A stretch of 46,760 bases of DNA from the IMG/VR virus record IMGVR_UViG_3300025782_000022; one strand, written 5' to 3'. The notes beneath the pieces are model-generated. The model did no database searches. It was given only the letters and a program-made list of their open reading frames with translations, and was not told where the DNA came from. Below, piece by piece: positions 11,423 through 46,760 of this stretch. Source of the stretch: a virus. Position 1 is the stretch's first letter, and each line of letters starts with the position of its first letter. A program made the translations under genes and the position numbers.

Positions 11423-13252
11423 ATGAGCAGTATTACATTTGTAGATTACCAAACCATCATACCTGCATCATGGTTAAATGATGTAAATAACATGGTGTAT
11501 AACGGCGTTGTCCCTGCGACAACCCTATCGCCAACGAATTTATCCGTCAGTACAAATGCGAGTATTGCGAACATTACCAATAACGTAGTGTTTACTTCTA
11601 CTGGCGCAATTACTTTGCCAAATGGTACAACTGCGCAAGAACCTGGTACGCCAAGTGCAGGTATGATTCGTTTTAATTCAACAAAAACCCAATTTGAAGG
11701 ATACAACGGTTCAGCTTGGTCTTCTTTTGGAATTGTTGGTGGTTCAAACGCACAAGTTCAATACAACAGTTCTGGTGCATTAGCAGGTTCTTCAAATTTA
11801 ACATTTGATGGAACAACTCTAACGGTAAATGGTTTAATTACAGGTTCAGCTTTTAGCACTTACTTAGCAAGCCCTCCTGCGATTGGTGGAACAACGGCTT
11901 CTTCAGGTAAATTCACAACTTTGACAAGCACAAGCGATGCTACGCTACACGGACTAACAGTAGGTTTAGGTGGGGGTTCTGTTGCAAGTAATACCGCTTT
12001 AGGAGTTAATGCTTTAATTAATTCAACTAATAGCAGTTATGGAGTTACAGGATTTGGCTATTCTGCTTTAAATTCTAATACTTCGGGTAATTCTATTGTT
12101 GCTGTTGGCGCAAATGCGCTTTTGTCAAATACAACTGGTTCATCTTCCGTTGCGGTAGGGCATGAGGCTTTAAAACTAAACACCACAGCATCTAACAATA
12201 CAGCAGTAGGGTATCAAGCAGGGTATACAAACACTACGGGAGAAAGAAACGTAGCCGTTGGAGGAGGTGCTTTATATACAAACTCTACTGGGGTTCGTAA
12301 CGTAGCAGTTGGATTTAATTCGTTAAATCAAAATACTGCTTCATACAATACCGCAGTTGGAGAAGATTCTTTATCTAATAATTCAAGTGGTACTTATAAT
12401 ACAGCCATGGGTTATTTGGCCCTTTACTCCAACACCACAGCATCTAACAACACCGCTGTGGGGTATCAAGCCTTAAATGCTAATACAGCATCTAACAATA
12501 CAGCCGTTGGGTATCAGTCACTTAGTGCAATAACTAGCGGGACTTATAATACGGCAATAGGATTTGAAGCGGGTAACACACCAAGCACAGCTAGTTATAA
12601 CACTTTTGTTGGCTCTAGAATTACACAAGGTGCTGGTTCTGCGTTAACAGGAGGCAATAATACTTGTGTTGGAGATTATTCAGGATATTCTTTGGCTGGA
12701 TCTGCTACCTATAATACTCTTTTAGGTCAATCAGCTGGTTCTAATATCACTACAGGATCTAACAATACTTTAGTTGGTTATAATTCGCTACCATCATCCG
12801 CAACAGATACTTATGAAATTGTTATTGTTGCAAGTAATGGTGGAGGTACAGGAAAAGGTAGTTCTACAGGATTTATTTCTCCTAATGGTGGAAATATGTA
12901 TCAAGGTAGCAACACCACATTATGGTCTGTTTCTTCTGATGAACGATTAAAGAAAAATATTGTTGATAACACTGTTGGTTTAACTGCTATCAACGGCATT
13001 AAAGTCCGTAACTTTGAATATCGTTTGCCTGATGAAATTACAGATTTAGACAAGTCAAATGCTGTAGAAATTACAGGAACACAACTTGGTGTTATCGCTC
13101 AAGAACTTCAGCAAGTGTTACCTGATTGTGTAAAAACAGAATCTACTGGCGTTTTGTCCGTAGATTCTAGTGATGTTCTATGGCATCTTGTTACGGCAGT
13201 TCAGCAACTCAGCGCACAAGTTACTGCATTACAAGCTAAGGTGGGCGCATGA
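11423..13252 (+). CDS. Tail fibre/spike with C-terminal S74-type intramolecular chaperone domain
   Basis: NTAVGYQAL-type beta-helix repeats, then SSDERLKKNI...INGIKVRNFEY...LGVIAQELQQVLPDCV, the hallmark of the peptidase S74 auto-cleaving chaperone. Confidence 0.8.
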   Translation: MSSITFVDYQTIIPASWLNDVNNMVYNGVVPATTLSPTNLSVSTNASIANITNNVVFTSTGAITLPNGTTAQEPGTPSAGMIRFNSTKTQFEGYNGSAWSSFGIVGGSNAQVQYNSSGALAGSSNLTFDGTTLTVNGLITGSAFSTYLASPPAIGGTTASSGKFTTLTSTSDATLHGLTVGLGGGSVASNTALGVNALINSTNSSYGVTGFGYSALNSNTSGNSIVAVGANALLSNTTGSSSVAVGHEALKLNTTASNNTAVGYQAGYTNTTGERNVAVGGGALYTNSTGVRNVAVGFNSLNQNTASYNTAVGEDSLSNNSSGTYNTAMGYLALYSNTTASNNTAVGYQALNANTASNNTAVGYQSLSAITSGTYNTAIGFEAGNTPSTASYNTFVGSRITQGAGSALTGGNNTCVGDYSGYSLAGSATYNTLLGQSAGSNITTGSNNTLVGYNSLPSSATDTYEIVIVASNGGGTGKGSSTGFISPNGGNMYQGSNTTLWSVSSDERLKKNIVDNTVGLTAINGIKVRNFEYRLPDEITDLDKSNAVEITGTQLGVIAQELQQVLPDCVKTESTGVLSVDSSDVLWHLVTAVQQLSAQVTALQAKVGA

Positions 13253-23053: not shown

Positions 23054-23287
23054 ATGGCAACATTAACTCTCAAAAAAGCCAAACCTATTGGCGAAATTTC
23101 TCTCCCCAATCTTGATGGCAAATTTGTCGTTATGCGACAGTCTCGCCATGTCAAATCATTTAGATTTACCTGTTACATGGATACGCATGAACAAGCCATG
23201 CGTGAAGCTAATAGGTTAACAAAAGCTAACCAAACAGAGCGTTATCTTGTGCTTCAAGTACAAGGTTCCGCTGATTGGGAGGCTTAA
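23054..23287 (+). CDS. Hypothetical protein (77 aa)
   Basis: ORF with SD taaggt. TAATG coupling to the next gene. Confidence 0.6.
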   Translation: MATLTLKKAKPIGEISLPNLDGKFVVMRQSRHVKSFRFTCYMDTHEQAMREANRLTKANQTERYLVLQVQGSADWEA

Positions 23288-24051
23288 TGCACTATTACAA
23301 ATTTAATATTGCCGATTATCGGAAAGATACGGGGCATTTAAATACTATCGAGCATGGCATTTATCGTCAGCTTATTGATTGGTATTATTTGGATGAAAAA
23401 CCAATCCCACATGAAACCCAAGTGGTTATCAGGCGGTTACGTTTGGGTTCTGACGAGGAAAAATATTTAGAAATAATCCTTAAAGAATTCTTTAAAAATA
23501 CGTCCAAAGGATATGTACATACAAGAATTGAAGTTGATATTCATGGTTATCAAGAAAATTCTGATAAAAATAGAGCCAATGGAAAGCTAGGTGGCAGACC
23601 AAAGAAAACCCAGTCGGTTATTTCTGGGTTATTAAATGAAACCGAATCAAAAGGCAACCATAAACCATTAACCATTAACCAAGAACCATTAACCAATATA
23701 AATACTATACAGGCGGGAAACAAGTTTCCCCCTTGTCCTAGTCAGCAGATTTTAGAATTATGGAAAAAGCATTTGCCACATTTAACGCAACCCAGAACCT
23801 GGGAAGGCAATCGGCAGTCAAACCTTAAAAACCGTTGGATACAGGCAAGCAAGCACTCCGATTACTCTGACGGCTACACAAACTTAGAAGAAGGCATCCA
23901 TTGGTGGGATTCCTTTTTTGAGTACATCGCAAAAGACACAAAACTGGCAAGCGGTTTCGAGAGCAAGGATAGAACCTGGAAGCCAGATTTGGAGTGGGTG
24001 GTAAATGCAAGCAATTTTCAAAAAATTATTGATGGGAAGTACAACAAATGA
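23287..24051 (+). CDS. DUF1376 (YdaU)-family replication-associated protein
   Basis: MHYYKFNIADYRKDTGHLNTIEHGIYRQLIDWYYLDEKPIP matches the DUF1376 N-terminal signature. Start moved to ATG 23287 after SD gggagg. Confidence 0.7.
   Translation: MHYYKFNIADYRKDTGHLNTIEHGIYRQLIDWYYLDEKPIPHETQVVIRRLRLGSDEEKYLEIILKEFFKNTSKGYVHTRIEVDIHGYQENSDKNRANGKLGGRPKKTQSVISGLLNETESKGNHKPLTINQEPLTNINTIQAGNKFPPCPSQQILELWKKHLPHLTQPRTWEGNRQSNLKNRWIQASKHSDYSDGYTNLEEGIHWWDSFFEYIAKDTKLASGFESKDRTWKPDLEWVVNASNFQKIIDGKYNK
23655..23697. repeat. Iteron-like direct repeats (AACCAT(T/A)A x4) inside the DUF1376 gene
   Basis: caaccataaaccattaaccattaaccaagaaccattaaccaa, followed by an AT-rich stretch and a perfect 7-bp inverted repeat gggaaac-aa-gtttccc (23715-23730). 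Confidence 0.5.
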
Positions 24052-28130: not shown

Positions 28131-29543
28131 ATGTCATACGTTACAGTAAGTAATACTGCCGTTAATTCGGAATTGATGCAGATTTTAGAAGCCAATGAAA
28201 TCCAACCAGGTTCAGATTTAGGCTATCAGCTATGTAAGTTATTGTGGGAATTTCACCCACTTGGCGGGAAATTGGTTGAAAAGCCAATCAAATTAGCCCT
28301 ATCTAAGCCCCGAATCATTGCGGTGGATGCCGAACCCAAAGATATGCTTGTTGATGCGTTTAACAGGGAATGGGAAAGTCTTGGCGCAACGGCGCACATT
28401 CGTGACACCATGTTTCTGAAAAGGGTTTACGGTGCATCAGCTATCGTTTACGGCGCACCCAATATTCCAACAACAGAGCCAATTGACCCTTGGAAACTTT
28501 CCGAACTTAATTTGTATTTCAACCAATTAGACCCGCTGAACTTGGCGGGTTCTATCGTTACCAACCAGAACCCCAATGCTCCAGATTTTCAAAAGCCATT
28601 ACCTTACACAACTGCCGCAGGTCAACCTTATCATCCAAGCCGTTCAGTTGTGCTATTTAATGGCACTCCTATTTATTTAAGTTTCCAATCGTCAGGATTT
28701 GGTTTTACTGGTCGTTCAGTATTCCAAAGGGCTTTATACCCAATGAAGTCGTTTGTTCAGTCGATGGTGACTGATGACCTAGTGACGTTCAAGGCGGGAT
28801 TGTTAATTGCCAAGCAAAAACCCGCAGGTTCAATTGTTAATCGTTTGATGCAGACTGCCGCAGGTATCAAGCGCACCTATTTGCAGGAAGGCGTATCTGG
28901 CAATGTATTATCAATTGATATTGACGAAGCCATTGAAGCGTTAAATTTGACCAATACTGATACGGCGATGACAACGGCAAGAAATAATATTATTGCTAAT
29001 ATTGCCGCCGCCTCAGATGTTCCCGCTTTACTGTTAAAGGACGAAGCGTTCACCCAAGGATTTGGAGAAGGTACAGAAGATGCAAAAGCAATCGTCCAAT
29101 ACATTGATGGAATTAGGGAGGAAATGCACTCTCTTTATAAATTCTTTGACAAAATCGTTCAACATAGAGCATGGAATAAAGATTTCTTTGAAGCCGTTAA
29201 AAACAAATATCCTGAAACGTATGACAACAAAACGTATGAAGAAGCGTTCTATCATTGGCAGGAAAAATTCGATGCTTCATGGGAATCCCTCATGGAAGAA
29301 CCCGAATCAGAGAAGGTCAAAGTTTCGGATATTAAATTAAAAGGTATGACCGAAATACTGCGCACGATGTTGCCAGTTATTGACCCAATGAACAGGGCAA
29401 AATTGATGGAATGGGCGCAAGATAATATCAATGAAATGCCTGATATGTTCCAAAGCCACTTGGATTTGGATATTGAAAATCTAATGGATTATGAGCCGCC
29501 TACCCCAATGCCTGAACCTAAAGAACCTGCGGCAAAGGATTAA
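28131..29543 (+). CDS. Portal protein
   Basis: 470 aa, immediately after terL, with an acidic C-terminus. The family assignment (DUF1073-like) is tentative. Confidence 0.7.
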   Translation: MSYVTVSNTAVNSELMQILEANEIQPGSDLGYQLCKLLWEFHPLGGKLVEKPIKLALSKPRIIAVDAEPKDMLVDAFNREWESLGATAHIRDTMFLKRVYGASAIVYGAPNIPTTEPIDPWKLSELNLYFNQLDPLNLAGSIVTNQNPNAPDFQKPLPYTTAAGQPYHPSRSVVLFNGTPIYLSFQSSGFGFTGRSVFQRALYPMKSFVQSMVTDDLVTFKAGLLIAKQKPAGSIVNRLMQTAAGIKRTYLQEGVSGNVLSIDIDEAIEALNLTNTDTAMTTARNNIIANIAAASDVPALLLKDEAFTQGFGEGTEDAKAIVQYIDGIREEMHSLYKFFDKIVQHRAWNKDFFEAVKNKYPETYDNKTYEEAFYHWQEKFDASWESLMEEPESEKVKVSDIKLKGMTEILRTMLPVIDPMNRAKLMEWAQDNINEMPDMFQSHLDLDIENLMDYEPPTPMPEPKEPAAKD

Positions 29544-29545
29544 TT

Positions 29546-30214
29546 GTGCTATTTAAAAACTTAATAAATAATACATTTGTTGTTGCAATTGATGGATTGG
29601 AACAAGATTATTTGCGAGATAAAAATTATCGAATAGCTAGGGATTCTGATTTTAAAGAATCGGAACATCCAAGAGATGCTGACGGTAAATTTGCATCATC
29701 TGGAAACACCAAAAGCCAAGAAGGTACTTTGGAAAGAATGAAAAAAGAAGTTCCAGAATCAGTTGAGAATGAAATATTTGGTGAAACTGGATATATATAT
29801 TACACACCCCATAGACCAATTGAAAATTCTCAAGAAAAAATGTTAGGCACAAAAATTAAACCTTTACATGAAAGAGTTTTTGTATCTGATAAACCATTAA
29901 GTTCTGATAAATTAAATGACATTGAAGCAATACCAATTTCTCAAGAATCAAAGCATCAATTTGCTAAAGAATTAGCCGATTCGGGAGTTGTTGGGATGAT
30001 GAACAAAGATGGTAAAAGATTTTCTTTTGTTCATAAAAGCACAAAACACGATGGAAAAATACAAATAACCTATTATGATAAAAGTGGTGCAATTCTTGAT
30101 AGTCAACATAATGATAGAGCATCGGCTATTGAAGAATTAATTGAAGGTGGATTTATGAAAATTTTGCCTGAAGAAAAAGTAGGTTCATTGATTCAAAAAG
30201 TTATGGTGGGTTAA
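29546..30214 (+). CDS. EHPRD-xx-GKF leader protein 1 (222 aa, unknown C-terminal domain)
   Basis: GTG start. DFKESEHPRDADGKFASSG at 29663..29692. The N-terminal roughly 55 aa is paralogous to the next gene. Confidence 0.7.
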   Translation: MLFKNLINNTFVVAIDGLEQDYLRDKNYRIARDSDFKESEHPRDADGKFASSGNTKSQEGTLERMKKEVPESVENEIFGETGYIYYTPHRPIENSQEKMLGTKIKPLHERVFVSDKPLSSDKLNDIEAIPISQESKHQFAKELADSGVVGMMNKDGKRFSFVHKSTKHDGKIQITYYDKSGAILDSQHNDRASAIEELIEGGFMKILPEEKVGSLIQKVMVG

Positions 30215-31387
30215 ATGAAATTTAAAAATATTAAAACAGGCAATATTATTAATCTTCATGAACGGCTTATGCCGCTTTTTAAGTTTGTAATTCGTTCAGA
30301 CGAATATGTTTTTGTAAACGATGATTTTAAAGAACATGAACACCCAAGAGACCCAAGCGGAAAATTTACTTCTGGCGGTGGTGGTGGGGGCGCATCAGTT
30401 GAGCCTACCAAGACAGAAAAGCCAAGTTTGGAATTGTTAAAAGCGTATAACAAAGGCTTGAAAGAAATGCCAGGTTCGCCTAAGCAAAAGGAAACTTTGC
30501 AAGAAATCGAAAAGCTAAGAAGTTCTGAACCTGCACCAACTGAAAAACCCGCAGAAAAAAAAGGCAGAGGATTTGAAAAAGGCGGCGTTGATAAGCATGG
30601 ATTTGAAAGATCACCAGGACTAACCCCAAAACAAAGGCGAGTTGAAGGAACTTTTTACAACGCCATCAGAACCAATCAGCAACAATTGATTTCTGATTAT
30701 TGGCAAGCAATGAAGAAAGAAAAGTTTTTCAATACTATTGATGCTGACCAGGTTAAGAAATTAAGCCCTGCGTTCAGAAAAGATATGTCGATGGTTGGCG
30801 CAGTCCATGAGCCAAGTTCTCATTTGTCAAAAGTCATTTACAAACAAGCGTTAGAGAAAAAAGCCAGAGAAAACGATAAAAGCCCAACAATGTTTACAGC
30901 AGGTGGAAGCGGTTCAGGAAAGTCGGCTACTTCCCCCCTTGCGGCATCTATGTTTGGATTGAAGGACGATAACCTGGTTTACGATTCGGTTATGTCAACA
31001 TTCAAATCGTCCAAGCGCAAAGTTGACGAAGCACTTGATATGACCGAAGGTGATGCGGTGATTGTTTACACCAATACGCCTATTGAAAGGGCTTTAAAGT
31101 TCAACGCAATGCGTTCTAGGTCTGTATCTATTGACGTTCTAATTGAAGCGCATATGGGCGCATCTAAGACGGTGCATGAGATGCACGAACATTACAAAGA
31201 CAATCCGAGAGTTAAGATGCAAATTATCAATAATTTTGACGAACCGCATAATGTGCATTTGGGTACATTAAAAGGCGTATTTAAATACGACCCCGCAGTT
31301 ACCAGGCAAAAATTGGAACGCCAAGCTAAAGAAATGTTTGCTAAAGGCGAAATAGGTAAGGACAAGTTAAAAACACTTCTAGGGTAG
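30215..31387 (+). CDS. EHPRD-xx-GKF leader protein 2 with C-terminal zeta-toxin-like P-loop kinase domain
   Basis: DFKEHEHPRDPSGKFTSGGGGGG (30338..30367). ...VHEPSSHLSKVIY... is followed by the Walker A TAGGSGSGKS (30902..30925). Confidence 0.65.
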   Translation: MKFKNIKTGNIINLHERLMPLFKFVIRSDEYVFVNDDFKEHEHPRDPSGKFTSGGGGGGASVEPTKTEKPSLELLKAYNKGLKEMPGSPKQKETLQEIEKLRSSEPAPTEKPAEKKGRGFEKGGVDKHGFERSPGLTPKQRRVEGTFYNAIRTNQQQLISDYWQAMKKEKFFNTIDADQVKKLSPAFRKDMSMVGAVHEPSSHLSKVIYKQALEKKARENDKSPTMFTAGGSGSGKSATSPLAASMFGLKDDNLVYDSVMSTFKSSKRKVDEALDMTEGDAVIVYTNTPIERALKFNAMRSRSVSIDVLIEAHMGASKTVHEMHEHYKDNPRVKMQIINNFDEPHNVHLGTLKGVFKYDPAVTRQKLERQAKEMFAKGEIGKDKLKTLLG

Positions 31388-31440
31388 ATGTATTATAATA
31401 ATAGACAAGGTGATTCAGTTCACCAGAAAGAGAGTATCTT

Positions 31441-31620
31441 ATGAGTATTGATTTTGAAAAAGCTAAAACAGAATGGTTAAAAACTCTCAACGGTAAAAGT
31501 TTGGAGCAATACAAAGCCGAAAATGACCAACGCATTTTGCTTGCGATGGAGAAAATCGGCAACGAACCCAAAAATAAAAAGCTATGGGACGAAGCTGAAA
31601 GCATGGAAGATTCTGAATAG
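31441..31620 (+). CDS. Small protein (59 aa) missed by the ORF track
   Basis: MSIDFEKAKTEWLKTLNGKSLEQYKAENDQRILLAMEKIGNEPKNKKLWDEAESMEDSE, followed by a strong terminator. Confidence 0.55.
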   Translation: MSIDFEKAKTEWLKTLNGKSLEQYKAENDQRILLAMEKIGNEPKNKKLWDEAESMEDSE

Positions 31621-31644
31621 TTTAGAAAACAAAAGACCACAAAT

Positions 31645-31677
31645 AACCCCCTTTAGAAATATTGGGGGTTTTTTTTC
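31645..31677 (+). terminator. Intrinsic terminator
   Basis: aaccccc-12 nt loop-gggggtt followed by a T8 run. Confidence 0.8.
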
Positions 31678-31690
31678 GACCAAAAAGCAA

Positions 31691-31749
31691 CAAATTGCAA
31701 ATAAATAATACTTATCCTATTGTGTTTATGCTTAATAGGTATAAAATAA
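31691..31749 (+). promoter_or_regulatory. Island element E1 (inverted repeat plus GGTATAAAATAA box)
   Basis: caaattgcaaataaataatacTTATCCTATTgtgtttatgcttAATAGGtATAAaataac. The box lies 46 nt before the next ATG. Confidence 0.6.
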
Positions 31750-31785
31750 CAATTGTGGTGGTTAAGAAGTTAAAGGAGAAAAATC

Positions 31786-31935
31786 ATGGAACTAGCAAGA
31801 TACGGTTACTTGGTGATTCATGGAATTACGGAAGTTCGGGCGATATACCTGGCGGCAAAAATCAAAAGGCATTACGGTCGTGCGAGAGCCGCTTTAACGA
31901 TGATTAGAAGATACGAAGCCACAGGTCATTTTTAA
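31786..31935 (+). CDS. Small basic protein (49 aa), first gene after E1
   Basis: SD aaaggagaaaaatc ATG. MELARYGYLVIHGITEVRAIYLAAKIKRHYGRARAALTMIRRYEATGHF. Confidence 0.55.
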   Translation: MELARYGYLVIHGITEVRAIYLAAKIKRHYGRARAALTMIRRYEATGHF

Positions 31936-31954
31936 CACTTTGAAAGGAAATCAA

Positions 31955-32311
31955 ATGAAAGTTGCAGAAAAAATCAATTACCTTGGAATTTACATGGAAG
32001 CTACTCGTGCAGGTTGTGCGGCAGTCAATGGCATGGACGTTACGCCCGCAATTTTTACAAATGATGGCAAAGAATTCTTTTACGTTGCTGATGGTGCTTG
32101 CGGATTTGCATGGGTTGTCATTCGTGACATAAAGTTTGCAAACTTCCTGAAAAAAATGGGTGTCGGTCGCAAAAGATACAACGGCGGTTATTTGATCTGG
32201 GTATTTGATTACAACCAGAGTATGCAGAAAAAAGAAGCATACGCCGAAGCGTTTGCGCAGGTTCTAATAGATAACGGCATTAATGCTTATGCTGAGAGAA
32301 AATTAGATTAA
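31955..32311 (+). CDS. Hypothetical protein (118 aa)
   Basis: Start set at the ATG after gaaaggaaatcaa. The ORF-track TTG start reads through the SD. Contains GACGFAWV...GGYLIW...QSMQKKEAYAEAFAQVL. Confidence 0.7.
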   Translation: MKVAEKINYLGIYMEATRAGCAAVNGMDVTPAIFTNDGKEFFYVADGACGFAWVVIRDIKFANFLKKMGVGRKRYNGGYLIWVFDYNQSMQKKEAYAEAFAQVLIDNGINAYAERKLD

Positions 32312-32316
32312 TCAAT

Positions 32317-32334
32317 GCCCCTGCGGGGGCTTTT
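32317..32334 (+). terminator. Short GC hairpin plus T4 (weak terminator/attenuator or processing site)
   Basis: gcccc-tgcg-ggggc-tttt between two island genes. Confidence 0.4.
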
Positions 32335-32347
32335 AAAAGGAAATCAA

Positions 32348-32506
32348 ATGACGTACGAACAAGCAAAAAAAATAGTGGGAAGACAACCCAAATGGGCAAT
32401 TAAAAATATGCTCAAAGCCCTGCAAATGCTCCCTTGGTTAAATACTGATGAAGACAACGAAAGATTACTGGCTTGCAAAATTTACTTGAAAGGAAATAAA
32501 GAATGA
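32348..32506 (+). CDS. Small protein (52 aa)
   Basis: ATG after aaaaggaaatcaa; [52 protein letters not shown]. Confidence 0.6.
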
Positions 32507-32721
32507 AATTTACCAAAGCAAAAAATATTTGGCAAATGACCAAAGATGAAATGGCAAAGTTGCCAAAAGGTCAATGGGTTTATGCAGGTGAAAAATCAAG
32601 TTTAGGCAGGTTTTACGGAGTTCGGAAAAGTGGAGTTGTAGTTGTTGCTTGGAAGGACAACGCAAAAAATAACGATTACTTCGATTACTGCAAAAAACTT
32701 TACCAATATTCTTTAAATTAA
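32503..32721 (+). CDS. Small protein (72 aa)
   Basis: ATGA coupling; SD gaaaggaaataaaga. Confidence 0.65.
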
Positions 32722-32778
32722 TTTGTTGCAATTATGCCTAATCAGTATATTTATATGCCAATTAGGTATAAAATAAAG
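32718..32778 (+). promoter_or_regulatory. Island element E2
   Basis: ttaatttgttgcaaTTATGCCTAATcagtatatttatatgccaATTAGGTATAAaataaagg. The box lies 44 nt before the next ATG. Confidence 0.6.
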
Positions 32779-32810
32779 GCTTAGAAGGTAATAAAAAAAG
32801 GAAATTAATC

Positions 32811-33077
32811 ATGTATGTAGTTTATGAACCAAATATCCAATTAAATGCAAAAAATCAAAAAGTTATTGAAATTTGTAGAAATGGTGGATACGTTAAATAT
32901 CAATTGGAAAAAAACTATTTCGGTCAAGAAAAATTTCAAATTCGTGTTTATGATTTAAATGGTGATGTAGTGAAAGGGTTTGGGTATAAAGCAATTTATA
33001 ACGCAATTGCAAGTGGTATTTTGGTTAAAAAAGAAATTCCAAATACAAGTGCTTATGCAACTATTTGGGCAATTTAA
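32811..33077 (+). CDS. Small protein (88 aa)
   Basis: SD aaaaggaaattaatc ATG. Confidence 0.65.
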   Translation: MYVVYEPNIQLNAKNQKVIEICRNGGYVKYQLEKNYFGQEKFQIRVYDLNGDVVKGFGYKAIYNAIASGILVKKEIPNTSAYATIWAI

Positions 33078-33099
33078 TTAATTATTGAAAGGAAATCAA

Positions 33100-33285
33100 A
33101 TGGAAACAATTTTTGAACACTTCCCAATAACAAACAGCCAAGTAATCGGTATCGCCCCTGACGGAACAACATTAAGAACCTGGAACGAAGGCGAAAGAAC
33201 TTTCATGGAGACTTACGGTTACACCCCTCCAATTGGCGAATTCGGTATCAGATATGGTTTAGTAATTGTGGTTGAAACAACTTAA
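33100..33285 (+). CDS. Small protein (61 aa)
   Basis: ATG after gaaaggaaatcaa; METIFEHFPITNSQ... Confidence 0.6.
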   Translation: METIFEHFPITNSQVIGIAPDGTTLRTWNEGERTFMETYGYTPPIGEFGIRYGLVIVVETT

Positions 33286-33297
33286 AAAGGAAATCAA

Positions 33298-33456
33298 ATG
33301 GAACTCCAACAAAATCAATTTTGGCAAACCAGAGCAAGGGGAACAAACGACCAGGAATATCAAATTTACCTGGCTTGTGCTGATGACGGTAACGGTGGTG
33401 ACATTGGCAGAAATGGTGAACCGCTTTTAACTTATGAGGAGTGGTTAGCAAACTAA
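33298..33456 (+). CDS. Small protein (52 aa) missed by the ORF track
   Basis: ATG after aaaaggaaatcaa; MELQQNQFWQTRARGTNDQEYQIYLACADDGNGGDIGRNGEPLLTYEEWLAN. Confidence 0.55.
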   Translation: MELQQNQFWQTRARGTNDQEYQIYLACADDGNGGDIGRNGEPLLTYEEWLAN

Positions 33457-33458
33457 AA

Positions 33459-33518
33459 ATAATTTGTTGTAAATATACCAAACTAGAATAAACAATGCTA
33501 ATTTGGTATAAAATAAAG
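33459..33518 (+). promoter_or_regulatory. Island element E3
   Basis: ataatttgttgtaaaTATACCAAActagaataaacaatgctaaTTTGGTATAaaataaagt. The box lies 52 nt before the next ATG and has an extended -10-like TGgTATAAA. Confidence 0.6.
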
Positions 33519-33558
33519 TCTGAGTTAGGAAATTAAACAAACAAACAAAGGAAATAAA

Positions 33559-34056
33559 ATGAAAAGAACACCAAGTATCCCCGCCCAAGCCGCTACGATG
33601 ATTAGAAATTATCTAAAAGCAAACAACATTGCAGGTAGCGTAAAAAGTGAAATTTATAGCATGGGCAGTAGCGTTAATGTTTACGTTACTGACATAGAGC
33701 CAGAAGTATTAGACAAATTAAGAACCTTTGCTAATCAATTCCAATACGGTCGTTTTGACGGTATGCAAGACCTTTACGAATACACAAATAGTAGAGATGA
33801 CCTGCCCCAAGTCAAATACGTTTTTGTTAACAACACACTTAGCCCTGAACTTAGTCAAGAGATTTGGAACTTTGCCAGAAACTATTACGCAGGAATGGAA
33901 GATGCGCCAGAAGATCAAGCCCTGGCAAGCAAGTTTTATAACCCACAAATGAATGAATACGGCAACACCATTATTTGGATGTTGTTCGATGGTAAATACA
34001 TGAGGGATGGTTACTGGAATTTTGCGAAAGGTATTGAGGAAGTTTTAGAGGCTTAA
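33559..34056 (+). CDS. Hypothetical protein (165 aa), possibly an LPD-type (polyvalent-protein-associated) domain
   Basis: ...IAGSVKSEIYSMGSSVNVYVTD...QYGRFDGMQDLYEYTN...PQVKYVFVN. From memory this resembles a domain seen in conjugative-element and phage polyvalent proteins. Unverified. Confidence 0.6.
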   Translation: MKRTPSIPAQAATMIRNYLKANNIAGSVKSEIYSMGSSVNVYVTDIEPEVLDKLRTFANQFQYGRFDGMQDLYEYTNSRDDLPQVKYVFVNNTLSPELSQEIWNFARNYYAGMEDAPEDQALASKFYNPQMNEYGNTIIWMLFDGKYMRDGYWNFAKGIEEVLEA

Positions 34057-34073
34057 TTTTTAACAATCAACCT

Positions 34074-34096
34074 GCCCCCCAAGTGGGGGCTTTTTA
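34074..34096 (+). terminator. Intrinsic terminator closing the island
   Basis: gccccc-caagt-gggggc followed by ttttt. Confidence 0.75.
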
Positions 34097-34098
34097 TT

Positions 34099-34320
34099 AT
34101 GGAAACAAAAACACGAAACAGGGGCGCATTTGGATACGTTCCAAATCCTAGCGAAATAATACTTGCCAGGGGTAATTTATCTCAAGCCAAATGCGCTTCT
34201 TTAATTTATACTACCCAAGTTCGTTGGAGCAATTACGAAAACGGCAAAAGTCGAATACATCCTGCGATGTGGGAATTATTTCTTGAAAAACGAAAAAGGC
34301 TAAGTAATGACGTTTTATGA
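34099..34320 (+). CDS. Small HTH (XRE-like) DNA-binding protein (73 aa)
   Basis: LSQAKCASLIYTTQVRWSNYENGKSRIHPAMWELF is a helix-turn-helix-like pattern. It overlaps the MuF-like gene start. Confidence 0.55.
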   Translation: METKTRNRGAFGYVPNPSEIILARGNLSQAKCASLIYTTQVRWSNYENGKSRIHPAMWELFLEKRKRLSNDVL

Positions 34321-35110
34321 AGTTTTGACCGAAGCAATTAACGACATAATGGAATATGGGTTCGATTCTGAAAAAAGACTTCAGGATTGGATGGAAACAA
34401 TTAAAATTGCCGCTTACAACAGTTTAATCCCTGAATCGCAGGTCGAGCAGGAAATGATTAAAGCAATGACCGCCGCATATACCAGATTGGTCGTAAAGGG
34501 CGGATTGGTCAGAAAAAACGTCACCAAATACGATGTTGAACGGCTTAAGCCAAAATTAAGAAACGAACTAGACCGCAGAATTTCAACTGCGGCTAACCTT
34601 ATTAAATTAAACCGCCAAGAAGCCATTAGCAACACCCTGCGAAGGTTTCAAGGATGGGCAACGTCCATACCCCCAGGCGGTAGCAAAGTAACGGACAGGA
34701 ACAAAACTAAGAAGGATATTAGAAAATCCTTGAGTGCTATTACTTTTGAACAACGCAGGGTTGTAATAGATCAAACCCATAAATTGGTTTCAAATATTAA
34801 TGATATTGTTGCGGTTGATAACGGCGCAATTGCGGCGAAGTGGCATAGTCATTGGCGGCAGGTAAACTATGATTACAGAAAAGATCATAAAGAACGTGAC
34901 GATAAGATATATATTATTCGCAACTCATGGGCGGACGAAAAGGGATATTTAAAGCATCCCAATGGTTATACCGATGAAATAACGCAACCAGGCGAAGAAG
35001 TATTTTGTAGGTGCAATTACCAATACATCTACAATTTAAGTTCGGTAAAAGAATTGTTGACAACAAAGGGCGAAAAAGCACTACAATCTGCCAAAATTAC
35101 TTTTAAATAA
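34307..35110 (+). CDS. Head morphogenesis protein, SPP1 gp7 / Mu F-like
   Basis: C-terminal ...WHSHWRQVNYDYRKDHKERDDKIYII...PGEEVFCRCNYQYIY (H...PG..CRC signature). Confidence 0.7.
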   Translation: MTFYEVLTEAINDIMEYGFDSEKRLQDWMETIKIAAYNSLIPESQVEQEMIKAMTAAYTRLVVKGGLVRKNVTKYDVERLKPKLRNELDRRISTAANLIKLNRQEAISNTLRRFQGWATSIPPGGSKVTDRNKTKKDIRKSLSAITFEQRRVVIDQTHKLVSNINDIVAVDNGAIAAKWHSHWRQVNYDYRKDHKERDDKIYIIRNSWADEKGYLKHPNGYTDEITQPGEEVFCRCNYQYIYNLSSVKELLTTKGEKALQSAKITFK

Positions 35111-35113
35111 TTT

Positions 35114-37561
35114 ATGCCATTTGAATCGGAAGCCCAAAGAAAAGCTATGTATGCCGCCGCAAGCGGTCATGGCAATATTGGCATCCCTAAAGAAGTGGCA
35201 AAGAAATTTATTAAACACTCAGAAGACGGCGATATTCCTGAAGAATCTACGCCCCTTGCAACTCCCGAATTTAAAGAAGATGATGCTGACCCTTGTTGGG
35301 AAGGTTACAAACAATTAGGAATGAAGCAAAAAGGCGGCAAAGAAGTGCCCAATTGCGTTCCAGAGGATGATTCTGAGGCTTGGGAGACCAAGGAAGGTAA
35401 GAATAAAAAAGGCGGTTTAAATGCCAAAGGCAGGGCTTCTTACAACAAAGAGCATGGCGCACATTTAAAAGCCCCTCAACCTGAAGGCGGGTCAAGGAAA
35501 GAATCATTTTGCGCCCGAATGTCAGGCATGAAAGAAAAGCTAACTTCTGACAAAACAAAACACGACCCAAATTCCAGGATTAATTTAGCATTAAAAAAAT
35601 GGAAGTGCGATGCTGATTGGGATAGTTCCAAAGTTCAATCAGAATTAAAAGGCTTGTCAGCCAAATTAGCAGAAATTACTAAAAGTATTACAACTTTAAA
35701 AGCTGATGATTTAGCCGTTGAAAGAATTGCAACTGGTTCAAAATCTGATGCTATGCCAATTGACAAAGATGCAGGGGCATTAGGTCGTGCCGCAGGAATA
35801 ATGTTTTTGACCAATGACGGCAAAGTATTATTGATTCGCAGGGGAGATGGTGGCGATTATCCTCAAACTTGGGCAGTACCAGGCGGTCATCAAAATAAAG
35901 AAGATGCAAACTTAGAAGAAGCGGCTAGGCGTGAATGTTTTGAAGAAACAGGTATCAAGTACGAAGGCAAGTTGGAAGTATTATTTGATGACGGTCAATT
36001 TTGTACTTATATTGCCAGAAATTTTGAGCAAGTTCCAGTAACTTTGAACCATGAATCAACTGGATTTGATTGGTGTCATGTTGATAATCCCCCAATGCCT
36101 TTGCACCCAGGACAAAATATTTGTTTCAAAATTGCAAGTGCAAAAACAGAATTCGATTATGCTGAATTAATTAGGCAAGATTTATTGCCAAGCCCTCAAA
36201 TGTATGCTAATGTTATGCTATTAGCTATTCGCATTACAGGAACAGGGTTAGCTTATCGTTCAAGTATTGGTGAGCACGTTTGGCGTGATTCCAGTTTATA
36301 TTTGAATGATGACTTTTTAAAGCGTTGTAATGGGTTGATTGTGATAATGGATCACCCTGAAACTGCGGTTTTGACTTCCAAGGAATTCAAGGACAGAGCA
36401 GTTGGAAGTATTATTCTGCCTTATATTAAGGGAGATGAAGTTTGGGGTATTGCGAAAATCTACGACCAAGATGCGGTAAACACCATTTTGACCGAAGAAG
36501 TTAGCACTAGCCCATCTGTTGTTTTTGACCAAACAGCAGGTAACACGACACTAACGACTGAGAATGGAGAGCCACTCTTGATCGAAGGTGTACCATTTCT
36601 TTTAGATCATATTGCTATCGTAACTGAAGCAAGGGGTTCTAAAGGAGTATGGGACAAGGGTGGCGAACCCGCAGGAGTATTATTAACTAACCAAGAGGTA
36701 TCTGAAATGACAGACAACAAAGTAGAGCCGAAAGCAGATGCTCAAGGCGATAAACTAGATGCCATTCTTTCGGCTCTCAGCTCCATGAGTGTGAGAATTG
36801 ATGAGATGGAAAAAAATCTTCCCGCCCCTCCACTCGTTACTGCCGCTGATAAAAAGCGCAAAGACGAAGATGCGAAAATGGACGATGATGATGAGGAATC
36901 AGAATCAGAAGCCAAACACTTCATGGAACGCAAAATGGATTCCAAAAAGCGTAAAGATGAAGATATGGAAGAAAAGCACATGGAATCAAGAAAAGCAGAT
37001 AAGCATCGTAAAGATGATGATGACGAAGATGACATGAAAAAAGCCAAGAAAGATGCCGAAGGCTCTGACATGGGCGAAGAAAAAATGCCCTCAGGTGAAA
37101 TGAAGCCTGATGACGATGATGCCAAGAAGGATGAAGAAGCTATGAAGATGGACGAAGCCGCCGCAGAATACGCAGATGCACAAGCAAAATGCGATTCAGT
37201 TTTAGCCGCTTTTGGTAAGTCAGCTTCCCGCCCACTACAAGGCGAATCATTGATGGCTTATAGGAAACGTCTTCTCAGAGGATTGCAAGCGTATTCTGAT
37301 AGCTACAAGGATATTAACCTTGCAACTATAAAAGATGCAAAATTACTCGAATTAGCTGAAAAGCAAATTATGAATGATGCAATGACTGCCGCAAGAACAT
37401 CTAGTCATGTTCCTGGAGATCAATTGATTGCTATTCAATCAAGAGATTCAAGCGGTCGTACAATCACTAAGTATCGTGGTTCAATGGAAGCATGGCTTGG
37501 CGATTTCAAAGTTCCTCCACAAAGAGCAACTACTTTCCATACACCTAACAACCAACGCTAA
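35114..37561 (+). CDS. Multidomain head protein (815 aa): N-terminal small motifs, Nudix hydrolase domain, prohead protease/scaffold-like (DUF2213-like) region, K/D/E-rich low-complexity segment, C-terminal scaffold-like tail
   Basis: Nudix box GGHQNKEDANLEEAARRECFEETGI (aa 257-281). ...LIVIMDHPE...VGSIILPYIKGDEVWGIAKIYD. Charged repeat region at aa 578-685. It lies between the MuF-like and capsid genes. Confidence 0.75.
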   Translation: MPFESEAQRKAMYAAASGHGNIGIPKEVAKKFIKHSEDGDIPEESTPLATPEFKEDDADPCWEGYKQLGMKQKGGKEVPNCVPEDDSEAWETKEGKNKKGGLNAKGRASYNKEHGAHLKAPQPEGGSRKESFCARMSGMKEKLTSDKTKHDPNSRINLALKKWKCDADWDSSKVQSELKGLSAKLAEITKSITTLKADDLAVERIATGSKSDAMPIDKDAGALGRAAGIMFLTNDGKVLLIRRGDGGDYPQTWAVPGGHQNKEDANLEEAARRECFEETGIKYEGKLEVLFDDGQFCTYIARNFEQVPVTLNHESTGFDWCHVDNPPMPLHPGQNICFKIASAKTEFDYAELIRQDLLPSPQMYANVMLLAIRITGTGLAYRSSIGEHVWRDSSLYLNDDFLKRCNGLIVIMDHPETAVLTSKEFKDRAVGSIILPYIKGDEVWGIAKIYDQDAVNTILTEEVSTSPSVVFDQTAGNTTLTTENGEPLLIEGVPFLLDHIAIVTEARGSKGVWDKGGEPAGVLLTNQEVSEMTDNKVEPKADAQGDKLDAILSALSSMSVRIDEMEKNLPAPPLVTAADKKRKDEDAKMDDDDEESESEAKHFMERKMDSKKRKDEDMEEKHMESRKADKHRKDDDDEDDMKKAKKDAEGSDMGEEKMPSGEMKPDDDDAKKDEEAMKMDEAAAEYADAQAKCDSVLAAFGKSASRPLQGESLMAYRKRLLRGLQAYSDSYKDINLATIKDAKLLELAEKQIMNDAMTAARTSSHVPGDQLIAIQSRDSSGRTITKYRGSMEAWLGDFKVPPQRATTFHTPNNQR

Positions 37562-38209: not shown

Positions 38210-39235
38210 ATGTCAGGATTTGCACCGTCATTCGTCACAGTTAACCCCCACTTTATGTTGCCTGAGTTAATCATGCAATATAGCTTGGCTTCTGGCGCAT
38301 TTACAACACTAGCAACTGAAAACCCAATGCCCCGCCTTGGTGAAGCAGACTTGTACGTTTATGCTAAGAAAATCCAGTTAACTTCACAAGTTCAGTCTAA
38401 TCAATCACAGTTTAATCAATTGCCTAGCGCATCGGTTATCCCATCAATGATTAGCACCGCAACTTACCGTATGTCAACTCGTGCTCAGTACGATAACTTT
38501 GATGAAGCCGCAACTGGCGTTTGGGGCTATGCGCTTCCAGAAGCTATGCGTTTAGGCGCAAGACAAGGTATCGCACAACAAATGCGTAATGCGTTGTTAT
38601 ACGGTTTCAACCCTGCAAACGGCGAAGGCTTGATTAATACATCAGGCGCAACCGCAGTTAATTTGGGTTCTGATACAAACGGTAACACAGGTTATTCCAC
38701 TTGGGATAGTGGTCAACTTGCTCAGTATATGCTGAACATGATTGGCGCACTCAAGGTTCGTACCCTGCAAATCGGTCAACCTTTGCGTTTAGTATTCTTA
38801 GCACCACAAAGATTCATCAGCCAAATTTCATATTCTGGCGTTGTTTCTTTAACCCAGTTCCAACGAATTGGCGCAGGTGTAGAGACTGCCGCAGGTTTGA
38901 TTGAGACTGTTGCAAAGTGGGCAGGTGGTGATGATGTAGTTTTCGCCGCTGATGACACTTTAATTGGTCAAGGTTCTGGCGGTACAGATGCGATCATTTT
39001 GATTGCTCCTGAACTCAAGATTCCTAAAGCCAACAACAAGATCAACACCAACGTATTTGCTACATTGACACCTAATATCACCGCAACTTCTTTAATGTTG
39101 ACAGATGTTAGCGCACCAACAGAAATACCTACCCCCATCGCTGATGGCGGTATTACAACTCTGTACACAATGCGTTCAACTTCTGGTTGGGGTATTCGTC
39201 CTGAAGCATTGACAATCCTTTCTGCCGCATATTAA
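38210..39235 (+). CDS. Major capsid protein (putative)
   Basis: 341 aa with a strong SD (aaggaga) and a terminator hairpin downstream. Synteny fits. The family (DUF2184-like) is a guess. Confidence 0.7.
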   Translation: MSGFAPSFVTVNPHFMLPELIMQYSLASGAFTTLATENPMPRLGEADLYVYAKKIQLTSQVQSNQSQFNQLPSASVIPSMISTATYRMSTRAQYDNFDEAATGVWGYALPEAMRLGARQGIAQQMRNALLYGFNPANGEGLINTSGATAVNLGSDTNGNTGYSTWDSGQLAQYMLNMIGALKVRTLQIGQPLRLVFLAPQRFISQISYSGVVSLTQFQRIGAGVETAAGLIETVAKWAGGDDVVFAADDTLIGQGSGGTDAIILIAPELKIPKANNKINTNVFATLTPNITATSLMLTDVSAPTEIPTPIADGGITTLYTMRSTSGWGIRPEALTILSAAY

Positions 39236-42410: not shown

Positions 42411-43709
42411 ATGCCTAATATTGTTAATGTTTCGGTCACTCAGCAGGTTGCGAGTGCGCCATCAACTTTGCAAAGAACAGGTGCAATTGTTAGCCAAGGC
42501 GGTACAACCTTGGCTTCAGGTACTACTCAATTATTGACTTCAGTTAGCGGTTTAAATAGCATTTTAAGTGGTGCTATTACTCTTTCCGCTATGACTTGGA
42601 GTGCAAACGTAGTATCAGCAACAACTGCAACTCCTCATGGTATTCCAAACGGTCAAATAGTATCTGCAATAATTACTGGCGTAACTCCATCGGGTTACAA
42701 CGGCACTTATCAAATTACTTCAACTGGTGCTAATACATTTACTTATGCTTTAAGCGTTAACCCTGGTAGCTCAACTGTTCAGGGTGCGGTTACTTTGTCC
42801 GATGTTTCAGAATTGGTTGCACAAGTTACAACTTATTTTGCACAAGGCACAGGAAATGCGGTTTATGTACTAGAACTTGGAACTGGTTCACCTGCGGCGG
42901 GTGTAACGGCTTTAGAAGCCTACATTGCTAACCCAACGGTTAAGTTTTATAGTTACTTGTTACCTTTGCAGTGGGATGTAGAAACAACTGCGCCAACAAT
43001 GGCTAGGTTGTATGTCAGCACGACTTCTGAGTTATATTTCTATGTAACCACAACAACTGCTACTTACACCAATTGGACAGGTATCAAATCAGTATTTGCA
43101 ACACTTCAAACCCCAACTGCTCCAGTTACAGAATTTGATGCGGCGGCGATGTTTGCCATTACTTTGGGATACAACCCAGGTAGTTCCAACCTGGCTTCAC
43201 CGCTTGAGTACACATTCTTATATGGCGTAACTCCTTATTCAACTCTAACAAATGCGCAACAAACTTCTTTGAGTGCGGTAGGTGTAAACTGGGTTGGAAC
43301 AGGCGCACAAGGTCAAATTAGCAATACTTTGATTCAAACTGGTAGTTTCATGGATTTAAACCCATTTAACTATTGGTATTGCGTTGATTGGTTATCAATA
43401 AATGTCTCAATAGCACTTGCGGCGGCAATTATCAACGGTAGCAATACACCAACAAATCCTTTGTATTACAACCAAGCAGGTATAAATACCCTGCAAAAAG
43501 TTGCACAAGCTACGGTTAATAGTGGTATTTCTTTTGGTTTAATACTTTCACCCGCAACGGTCAATGCAGTATCATTCCAAACGTATATTACTCAAAACCC
43601 AAGCAATTATGCGGCAGGTATTTATAACGGTCTAAGTTGCACATTTGTGCCACTCAGAGGATTTACATCTATTACCATTTACTTGACTGCAAGTAATATT
43701 CCAGTTTAA
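42411..43709 (+). CDS. Tail sheath protein (putative) with inserted small beta domain
   Basis: 432 aa, directly upstream of the tube, chaperone and tape-measure genes. SD aaggagg. The insert MTWSANVVSATTATPHGIPNG...YNGTYQITSTGANTFTY is shared with baseplate proteins. Confidence 0.65.
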   Translation: MPNIVNVSVTQQVASAPSTLQRTGAIVSQGGTTLASGTTQLLTSVSGLNSILSGAITLSAMTWSANVVSATTATPHGIPNGQIVSAIITGVTPSGYNGTYQITSTGANTFTYALSVNPGSSTVQGAVTLSDVSELVAQVTTYFAQGTGNAVYVLELGTGSPAAGVTALEAYIANPTVKFYSYLLPLQWDVETTAPTMARLYVSTTSELYFYVTTTTATYTNWTGIKSVFATLQTPTAPVTEFDAAAMFAITLGYNPGSSNLASPLEYTFLYGVTPYSTLTNAQQTSLSAVGVNWVGTGAQGQISNTLIQTGSFMDLNPFNYWYCVDWLSINVSIALAAAIINGSNTPTNPLYYNQAGINTLQKVAQATVNSGISFGLILSPATVNAVSFQTYITQNPSNYAAGIYNGLSCTFVPLRGFTSITIYLTASNIPV

Positions 43710-46565: not shown

Positions 46566-46760
46566 ATGAGTTCTTTTGGTCAAACCGCATTTCAAGCCGC
46601 ATACGAAATATCGCCCATTATTTTGCAAAATGGAATTGCGCAATTTATTCCTGGCGGATTGTTGCCGATTACTGTTTTGACTGAAATGTTTGATATTCCA
46701 GGAATTGAAGAAGGTCAATTTTTTGCGCATTACAAGCCTTTGCCTGGAAGCACATTAGCA
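46566..46760 (+). CDS. 5' part of a wrap-around tail/baseplate-module gene (continues at 1..544; about 203 aa once the overlap is collapsed)
   Basis: ATG at 46566 follows SD-like tgaggattgt, directly after the tape-measure stop. The frame runs open to the window end and is in phase with ORF 26..544 (46634 = position 1). Confidence 0.8.
   Translation, partial: MSSFGQTAFQAAYEISPIILQNGIAQFIPGGLLPITVLTEMFDIPGIEEGQFFAHYKPLPGSTLA
46634..46760. repeat. Second copy of the 127-bp closure overlap
   Basis: Same 127 bases as 1-127. Confidence 0.95.

Follow-up and report, generated by a model that had tools for sequence, protein, structure and literature searches.

The locus examined here raises the question of what a thrice-repeated element does among the structural genes of a phage. 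The stretch analysed, virus record IMGVR_UViG_3300025782_000022 (46,760 nucleotides, in the following called the window), contains three copies, E1, E2 and E3, each with an inverted repeat and each ahead of a few small open reading frames (ORFs). The sequence-only reading of the window had explained them by selection on an RNA hairpin or an extruded DNA hairpin. Our analysis indicates instead that E1 to E3 are probably sigma-70-type promoters of accessory operons, with predicted operators for a repressor of the Aca10 family. On this reading the switch is of a type already known, found here in a new phage lineage, and not a new nucleic-acid structure.

A shared box and a family of promoters

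The box common to the three copies, GGTATAAAATAA, is found exactly at 31738, 32765 and 33505, and no other site with 0 or 1 mismatch exists in the whole genome; the conserved stretch reaches further upstream, to ATGC-N6-GGTATAAAATAA. Each copy is situated 5' of a small-gene operon, with 44-52 nt between TATAAA and the ATG at which a run of small ORFs with strong ribosome-binding sites starts. Up to here the earlier description was accurate. The box is not invariant, however, as E1 reads GGTATAGAATAA in the strains L013, L014 and L179. A second box, TAATTTGTTGYAA, is exact at 32719 in E2 and at 33460 in E3 and occurs nowhere else. That these two elements share it was correctly seen, but it does not lie at an identical distance of 44 nt from TATAAA: counted from the start of the box, the distance is 48 nt for E2 and 47 nt for E3, with intervening gaps of 35 and 34 nt. 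When viral contigs were scanned for ATGC-N6-GGTATAAAATAA, the matches were largely due to chance, apart from two strain variants.

In about 80 related contigs bearing a homologue of a helix-turn-helix (HTH) gene of the window, dozens of promoters consist of TTGACA, 2 nt, ATNCYWAATWRGNAT and a -10 hexamer. The family was defined by 44 non-redundant promoters from outside the window's own lineage, in which the order is -35, 2 nt, a 15-nt unit, -10, a conserved tGTAGT, CACGAAAGGAAA and ATG. The -35 is TTGACA (17 promoters), TTGCAT (12), TTGACT (6) or one of a few others, and it is separated from the unit by 2 nt in 42 of the 44. The unit reads A T [G/A] C [T/C] [A/T] A A T [A/T] [G/A] G T A T. 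Its positions 1, 2, 4, 12, 14 and 15 are invariant in 44/44, while neighbouring positions vary freely, and the invariant positions are symmetric (AT-C / G-AT). The -10, in the form of TATACT, TATTAT or TATAGT, starts at unit position 15, giving a spacer of 16 nt (range from -35 to -10, 16-17 nt). Sigma-70 does not read this part of the promoter spacer. Judged by sequence, the members of this family appear to be canonical sigma-70 promoters with a conserved symmetric spacer sequence.

E1 to E3 are homologous to these promoters, which supports the earlier suggestion that they are the promoters of the mini-operons. Near-identical boxes stand behind normally placed -35 hexamers in L111 (TTGACA-tc-ATGCCAAATAGGTAT-AGAATAAC, box GGTATAGAATAAC) and in L130 (TTGCAT-at-ATACCTGATAGGTAT-AAAATGA, box GGTATAAAATGA). 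The last base of the operator is the first T of TAAAAT, so that GGTATAAAATAA can be read as the right half of a 15-bp operator (GGTA being the end of the unit) fused to a -10 TAAAAT. Thus TATAAA, formerly taken as the -10, is displaced by TAAAAT, which is favoured by the homology to the family and by the strain variant TATAGAAT. TAAAAT in E1-E3 and the TAGAAT variant possess T at -12, A at -11 and T at -7, as expected for a sigma-70 -10. For the -35 the picture is different. At the 16-18 nt usual for sigma-70, E1 has TTGTGT (3/6, at 16 nt from TAAAAT), whereas E2 and E3 have none. The claim that a canonical -35 is absent consequently holds for E2 and E3, but E1 has a weak one. A promoter scan tool called none of the three.

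Two other promoter types were rejected. Dependence on an extended -10, as had been proposed, does not agree with G and T at -15/-14 instead of T and G, and a Bacteroidetes-type promoter (-7 TAnnTTTG) was dismissed, as its motif is absent, Shine-Dalgarno sites are strong and the relatives have TTGACA. A 12-nt box exact at three sites without a clear -35 might also recall promoters of a phage-specific sigma factor or RNA polymerase, with a long invariant box as in T4 late promoters (TATAAATA). The chance of this is practically negligible: in the homologous promoters of relatives TTGACA and the -10 are a fixed 16-17 nt apart, strains differ in the box, and annotation of the large ORFs revealed neither an RNA polymerase nor a sigma gene. 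The canonical -35 of the family rules against a T4-late-like or phage-polymerase promoter.

Two further features of the family were observed. An inverted repeat of 9 bp, GCAACAAC-N9-GTTGTTGC, is present in many relatives (L029 6170-6200, L130 3950-3985, L030 6000-6030, L115, L121), its right arm overlapping the -35 TTGCAT. The TAATTTGTTGYAA box of the window corresponds to this right arm, and E1 has a collapsed copy of it (GCAACAAATTGC). The repeat recalls the unbound IR1 over the -35 of the Pseudomonas citronellolis promoter. In the leaders of the family, about 10-35 nt 3' of the -10 (e.g. L094 2900-2935), tGTAGTctt and CACGAAAGGAAA precede the start codon. The three leaders of the window lack tGTAGTctt and fold as unstructured RNA.

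Structure of E1, E2 and E3

A weight matrix derived from the units of the relatives (maximum 24.0 bits) was scanned across the whole genome. Its four best matches are the three proximal units of E1-E3 and the upstream unit of E2. A match at 1372 (15.0 bits), inside an ORF of 333 aa, was discarded as chance. All hexamers, boxes and arms given below are on the + strand.

E1 has the highest-scoring unit of the genome, ATGCTTAATAGGTAT (31728-31742, 23.7 of 24.0 bits), a predicted operator. It is followed by the -10 TAAAAT (31742-31747), which is TAGAAT in L013, L014 and L179, and preceded by the weak -35 TTGTGT (31720-31725), 2 nt 5' of the operator and 16 nt 5' of the -10. This is the geometry of 42/44 family promoters. 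The left arm of the inverted repeat, TTATCCTATT (31712-31721), is a 10-nt partial left half of an operator, complementary to 31734-31744; the weight-matrix scan found no full second unit there. Further upstream, the box GCAACAAATTGCAA (31687-31700) is an inverted copy of the E2 box and includes a -35-like hexamer, TTGCAA, displaced upstream. Just 5' of E1 the portal-side genes end in a hairpin resembling an intrinsic terminator (31647-31676, + strand; CCCCC, 12-nt loop, GGGGG, T8), which was read from the sequence; its loop exceeds the limit of the terminator scan, which therefore does not list it.

E2 and E3 carry two units each. In E2 the TAA of the box TAATTTGTTGCAA (32719-32731) is the stop codon of the preceding ORF, and TTGCAA (32726-32731) within this box stands as a -35-like hexamer before U1, the upstream operator-like unit (ATGCCTAATCAGTAT, 32734-32748). 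With 16.9 bits U1 is the genome's fourth-best match, and a decayed -10, TATTTA, follows it. The proximal predicted operator U2, ATGCCAATTAGGTAT (32755-32769, 18.5 bits), begins 21 bp after U1 and leads into the -10 TAAAAT (32769-32774). In E3 the box TAATTTGTTGTAA (33460-33472) ends in the -35-like TTGTAA (33467-33472) and precedes U1, ATACCAAACTAGAAT on the + strand and ATTCTAGTTTGGTAT on the - strand (33475-33489). This unit has a score of 11.3 bits (- strand) and all six invariant positions intact; 3' of it stands a decayed -10, TAAACA. U2, ATGCTAATTTGGTAT (33495-33509, 18.5 bits), lies 20 bp after U1, with the -10 TAAAAT at 33509-33514. No -35 hexamer was detected 15-19 nt upstream of TAAAAT in E2 or in E3.

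Both upstream units are situated 2 nt 3' of TTGCAA or TTGTAA, i.e. of the upstream box of the earlier description. The same TTGTTGCA box is found in L029, L030 and L130, where it stands 5' of units with the canonical 2-3 nt in between. The upstream half is almost the L030 promoter (TTGTTGCA-ttc-ATGCCTAATAGGTAT-atact) in E2 and resembles L029 (TTGTTGCA-tta-ATACCTAATAGGTAT) in E3. The simplest reading of these sequences is that the second unit of E2 and E3 arose by tandem duplication of a promoter core. The resulting architecture is kept in all strain variants.

Relative to the inferred start, the unit centres of E2 and E3 lie at about -40/-39 (upstream) and -19 (proximal). Activator dependence of these two promoters, suggested earlier, is possible, and the geometry would allow dual control by the Aca10-like protein, which would first activate and then repress E2 and E3. 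Binding to the upstream unit near -40 would replace the -35 via sigma, binding to the proximal unit near -19 would block RNA polymerase, and E1 with its single operator and weak -35 would only be repressed. Besides the position of the centres and the lack of a -35, the intact invariant positions of both upstream units, the 20-21-bp spacing that places both sites on one face of the helix, and the conservation of the layout among strains are in line with this. We nevertheless regard it as unlikely. Aca proteins are described as repressors in the literature cited here, with activation unreported (PMC9410881, PMC9410906, PMC13551039), and a literature search for Aca proteins as activators gave nothing relevant. 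Furthermore, such islands are usually explained by promoters that fire as soon as infection begins, and one that depends on an activator could not do so; the upstream units may be decaying remnants of the duplication, the start site is inferred, and the layout occurs in one lineage only. Should this improbable arrangement apply after all, the island would be a timed cascade and not a single early burst.

The Aca10-family regulator and its link to the motif

The proposed repressor of E1-E3 is encoded at 34099-34320 (+ strand, 73 aa). A profile of this HTH protein and three relatives matched PDB 7XI5 with E 3.8e-14 (55.5 bits), and BLASTP of the window protein against 7XI5 gave 42% identity over 55 aa (E 8e-17). 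7XI5 is Aca10 of P. citronellolis, which binds a palindrome inside its own promoter (PMC9410881). In Pfam only sub-threshold matches to HTH_31 and HTH_19 were obtained, and a single-sequence AlphaFold model was poor (pLDDT 57). By homology the product belongs to the Aca10 family of anti-CRISPR-associated (Aca) regulators. Its putative recognition helix, IYTTQ(A/V)RWS, is near-invariant across the close HTH family, in parallel to the invariant operator positions.

Motif and gene occur together. Of 77 loci with a close homologue of the HTH gene, 64 showed the promoter-plus-unit pattern (163 sites in 686 kb); of 72 related loci lacking such a homologue, 21 did (26 sites, mostly within coding sequence, in 828 kb). 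The Fisher p of 1.6e-11 overstates the independence of the data, because the loci are related to each other. With distant HTH homologues the pattern was present in 1/9 loci, as expected under diverged specificity. The inverted-repeat operator overlaps the core promoter in 42/44 family promoters and in E1, and the unit is present in E2 and E3. The co-occurrence lends indirect support to the proposed binding and repression. The gene at 34099-34320, already named in the sequence-only reading, is the right candidate for one whose protein acts on the elements.

Plain constitutive 'moron' promoters, with spacer and repeats due to common descent and cassette shuffling and read by no regulator, would also account for several observations: like classic morons, the island has terminators on its flanks and occupies a hot spot of insertion, repeated ribosome-binding sequences are the places where cassettes come and go (see below), and paralogous promoters share sequence anyway. 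We consider this quite improbable, since six spacer positions, outside the part read by sigma-70, are invariant in 44 diverged promoters, these positions are symmetric, and the motif tracks the presence of the HTH gene.

The regulator gene is the last of its run. Nine small ORFs (31786-34056) and then the HTH gene follow each other on one strand, in an order shared with L028-L030. A terminator-like hairpin with a T-run (GCCCCCC-AAGT-GGGGGC, 34074-34090, + strand) abuts the start codon of the regulator and ends 3 nt 5' of it, and the 3' end of the gene overlaps the start of the gene for a MuF-like protein by 14 nt (34307-34320). Together with the missing clear Shine-Dalgarno sequence, this suggests that expression of the regulator is low, dependent on read-through and coupled to the head gene.

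Hairpin or protein-binding site

The inverted repeats reported earlier exist: 31712-31721 / 31734-31744 with one bulge in E1, 32732-32742 / 32761-32771 with one G-T pair in E2, and 33474-33482 / 33502-33510 in E3, the latter extendable to 16 nt with 88% complementarity. The loops comprise 12-19 nt. As RNA, E1, E2 and E3 fold with -8.8, -14.7 and -9.6 kcal/mol, better than shuffled sequences (z = -2.2, -3.1 and -3.1, respectively), whereas the DNA folds are weak (-2.7, -5.4 and -7.2 kcal/mol; z = -0.6, -1.3 and -4.1).

The compensatory changes described for the arms are real as far as two A/T pair swaps are concerned, which are the only covariation among the three copies. Their weight is small: the cognate assignment of left to right arms is the best among 6 possible ones, giving p = 1/6 at best. 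The 'matched one-base deletion' in E3 turned out to be a C-A mismatch at the loop end of the stem. MAFFT misaligns the E1 left arm in an alignment of the three elements. Near-identical strains, retrieved by exact-protein look-up, have unchanged arms and add no covariation data for this lineage. In E2 and E3 the earlier description took as left arm the left half of the upstream unit (plus TT in E2) and as right arm the right half of the proximal unit. The two are complementary, as both units are palindromic by descent.

Covariation had also been expected in homologous elements of related phages. Among 36 family sequences none was detected, and the values were below those of shuffled controls: 84.9% of the cells in the family palindrome are paired, compared with 88.5% in shuffles (499 of 500 shuffles at least as high), and the covariation score is 0.148 against 0.177. 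The inner pair 16/20 is unpaired in 27 of the 36 sequences, and unit positions 3 and 13 take almost any combination. As there is no covariation across the 36 members, the palindrome behaves as a fixed symmetric protein site (AT-C...G-AT with an A/T centre) and not as a maintained stem. Such a fixed symmetric palindrome is what would be expected for a dimeric HTH protein.

The long-range arms are missing in most relatives, where the best upstream matches reach 6-8 of 11 positions, no better than in shuffles; the median z of their folds is -0.77, with 75% above -2. Exceptions with an upstream arm complementary to the right half of the operator are L137, L138, L144 and L128. In a separate group of relatives the unrelated GCAACAAC/GTTGTTGC hairpin lies over the -35. 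The arm of the exceptional promoters (L137 3890-3940, L138 3600-3655, L128 4370-4415) stands just 5' of the -35, e.g. ATCCCTATT ... AATAGGGAT in L137, and gives a design with a 12-nt loop like that of E1; it may be due to chance or be an auxiliary half-site.

A function of the hairpins themselves, be it as RNA in read-through transcripts (processing, stability or protein binding) or as extruded DNA in promoter use, thus appears very improbable to us. Apart from the RNA folds, the better fit of cognate than of non-cognate arms and the four exceptional relatives, it could draw on reports that Aca2 and Aca1 bind RNA hairpins and on RNA motifs predicted for aca10 operons; purified Aca10, however, failed to bind its predicted RNA motif (PMC13551039). 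Each hairpin lies 5' of its own -10 and inferred start and is therefore absent from its own transcript, and E1 is located 3' of a strong terminator. These positions also disagree with the proposal of RNA processing sites, and a scan of 31300-34400 against Rfam yielded no matching family, apart from one chance-level match elsewhere in the region. The unstructured leaders, the weak DNA hairpins with 12-19-nt loops, the missing covariation and the lack of long-range arms in most relatives point in the same direction. Instead of selection on a hairpin, we find promoters homologous to a sigma-70 family with a 15-bp quasi-palindrome at a fixed place in the spacer.

Proposed control of the island

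Binding of the regulator to E1-E3, repression and its timing are what we infer. Host sigma-70-type promoters E1-E3 would drive three small-gene operons, which together would form one accessory island, probably anti-defence, inserted between portal-side genes and the MuF-like gene. Each promoter would bear a 15-bp quasi-palindromic operator, AT-N-C-Y-W-A-A-T-W-R-G-N-AT, to which the Aca10-family protein (34099-34320) most likely binds as a dimer. Following an early burst, the bound regulator would shut the promoters down, in the way demonstrated by experiment for Aca10, Aca1 and Aca2. A single regulator would control three adjacent operons, and the 20-21-bp tandem duplication in E2 and E3 would have moved the old -35 (TTGYAA) two helical turns away.

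Several points speak against this model of repressed sigma-70 promoters. Without a -35 for TAAAAT, E2 and E3 are odd for promoters expected to fire strongly and factor-free. The critical R44 of Aca10 aligns with Ser51 of the window protein (a neighbouring Arg is invariant and Q22 is conserved), and the unit of 15 bp (AT-N-C-N7-G-N-AT) has only the outer ATAC/GTAT in common with the 19-21-bp Aca10 site (ATACGCTCATTGAGCGTAT). Taken from the sequences, regulator and operator would represent a distinct subfamily specificity. A terminator-like hairpin precedes the regulator gene, for which no clear ribosome-binding site is seen. Concerning the arms, cognate pairs match at 10/11 positions in E2 and 9/11 in E3, compared with a mean of 7.3 and a maximum of 9 against the right halves of 33 relatives, so that the operator consensus alone does not fully explain the arm pairing. 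Descent from perfectly palindromic units, as in L029 and L030, accounts for most of the extra pairing; the extra complementarity could also reflect selection, e.g. for a regulatory hairpin in read-through RNA. Finally, none of the nine cargo ORFs has a significant match in Pfam, PHROGs, NCBIfam or PDB sequences (a match to LPD29 was sub-threshold), and none resembles a known anti-CRISPR or anti-defence protein.

Comparison with known systems

The closest counterpart is acrIC7-acrIC6-aca10 of P. citronellolis (PDB 7XI5; PMC9410881). Both systems have a small dimeric Xre-type HTH protein (42% identity over the core), a regulator gene at the 3' end of a small-gene run in a mobile element, and a palindromic operator inside the core promoter which reaches the -10 and has the outer bases ATAC...GTAT. 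A TTGCAA-type -35 in a further short repeat (ATTTGCAAAT in P. citronellolis, ATTGCAAAT in E1) is common to both, too. They differ in the operator, 15 bp with a 7-nt A/T-rich centre in the window but 19-21 bp with a G/C-rich centre for Aca10, and in R44, which the window regulator lacks. Moreover, the window has three promoters per regulator and a terminator-like hairpin 5' of the regulator gene, its cargo is not similar to AcrIC6 or AcrIC7, and its host is probably a freshwater betaproteobacterium, going by a weak hint given below.

For Aca1, 2, 4, 5, 9 and 10, two similar inverted repeats per promoter have been described, and the promoters were repressed in reporters (PMC9410906). As in these, a similar second repeat is found upstream or downstream of the core promoter, but in E2 and E3 it occupies the -35 region. 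According to a study of 2026, most Aca families are predicted to control neighbouring operons too, with up to three motif copies before three adjacent operons of which one alone holds the aca gene (PMC13551039). The window has exactly this three-operon layout, though no 5'-leader RNA motif is apparent in it.

In controller (C) proteins of restriction-modification systems and in lambda cI at PRM, a distal site activates and a proximal site represses. A small HTH dimer, two adjacent palindromic sites and a poor -35 are shared with E2 and E3; in the window, however, the regulator gene is the last of its operon and not the first, and the likeness to activation is one of geometry alone. Lambdoid morons and the promoter/stem-loop cassettes (PeSL) of T4-type hyperplastic regions are independent units of promoter, gene and terminator. 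They resemble the window in having units inside a late structural operon, with regulatory repeats between small variable genes as possible recombination points, whereas the repeats of the window carry a specific predicted operator tied to a co-encoded regulator.

The combination of a 15-bp operator with an Aca10-like gene may serve as a marker for accessory islands at the portal/MuF junction in widespread uncultured freshwater phages. By the guilt-by-association already applied to Aca1 and Aca2, the roughly nine small genes of the island can reasonably be regarded as candidates for new anti-defence proteins, and so can the many others that follow this promoter in relatives. The duplicated-operator promoters without a -35 are a small oddity in the control of such an island. 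The repeat is real, functional-looking and ordinary in kind; the label of an anti-defence island is suggested by its context.

Genome context

The phage genome is closed circular with 46,633 bp, as the 127 nt at 1-127 recur exactly at 46634-46760, and has a G+C content of 39.8%. The assembly is identical to JGI contig Ga0208742_1000053. PHROG matches identified the portal (28131-29543), the MuF-like head-morphogenesis protein (34307-35110), the major capsid protein (38210-39235) and the tail sheath (42411-43709), as well as baseplate and fibre genes. RecT- and RecE-like genes are found in a leftward early operon. With the capsids of myoviruses of Pantoea, Escherichia, Actinobacillus, Klebsiella, Yersinia and Shewanella, the capsid shares 47-51% identity. 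The phage is a temperate-looking myovirus.

The small ORFs around E1-E3 form a 2.7-kb block (31441-34320), with the portal-side genes on one side and the MuF-like gene on the other. When 29000-36000 was compared with phage records by blastn, all matches were short and irrelevant. A scan of viral contigs with the MuF-like protein provided 80 loci, which were compared by local tblastn. Portal and MuF genes are adjacent (6-27 bp apart) in L026, L027, L031 and L032; other relatives have 0.15-4.5 kb of unrelated variable cargo at this junction. The portal/MuF junction (29543-34307; loci L015-L045) is an insertion hot spot. The 73-aa HTH ORF has a homologue just 5' of MuF in only some of the cargo-bearing relatives, and these are the same subset that has ATGC-N6-GGTATA-type sequences. 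In loci without the HTH gene the island is absent or other cargo is present; the close relatives L015 and L016, for example, possess cargo but neither HTH gene nor motif.

With an alignment of HTH proteins as query, a second scan added about 75 loci, the majority of which came from metagenomes of freshwater lakes. Metagenomes searched with the HTH protein gave no new locus, and a scan of genome contigs yielded five weak or fragmentary loci with HTH homologues in beta-proteobacterial and Nitrosomonadales metagenome-assembled genomes. This is a weak hint that the host is probably a freshwater betaproteobacterium.

Cargo genes and minor observations

Operon 1 (31786-32721, + strand) comprises four small ORFs (31786-31935, 31955-32311, 32348-32506 and 32503-32721) and a weak terminator-like hairpin at 32317-32334. 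Operon 2 (32811-33456, + strand) consists of three (32811-33077, 33100-33285 and 33298-33456), the first of which is missing in strain L013. The cargo gene of operon 3 (33559-34056, + strand) encodes 165 aa with the weak sub-threshold match to LPD29 (polyvalent-protein) mentioned above, and its homologues in L028-L030 stand behind the same promoter type. An anti-defence role of the cargo is inferred from context alone.

A ribosome-binding region, TTGAAAGGAAATCAAATG, recurs 4-5 times between the small genes (31939-33301), and in L013 (3553-3620) the junction at the lost ORF 32811-33077 falls exactly between two copies of AAAGGAAAT. These repeats appear to be recombination points for the gain and loss of cassettes.

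Outside the island, ORF 23287-24051 at the start of the rightward early region contains three to four tandem or near-tandem copies of CCATTAA(C) (23655-23700), possibly iteron-like repeats. Three copies of ACAGCATCTAACAA (12185, 12437 and 12485) are present within an ORF similar to tail-fibre or tail-spike genes (11423-13252), pointing to internal protein repeats. The protein of 815 aa encoded 3' of MuF (35114-37561) combines DUF6321, NUDIX and Pa193_gp24-like regions, and its counterpart in strain L178 (5016-7450) is called as two ORFs of 138 and 673 aa.

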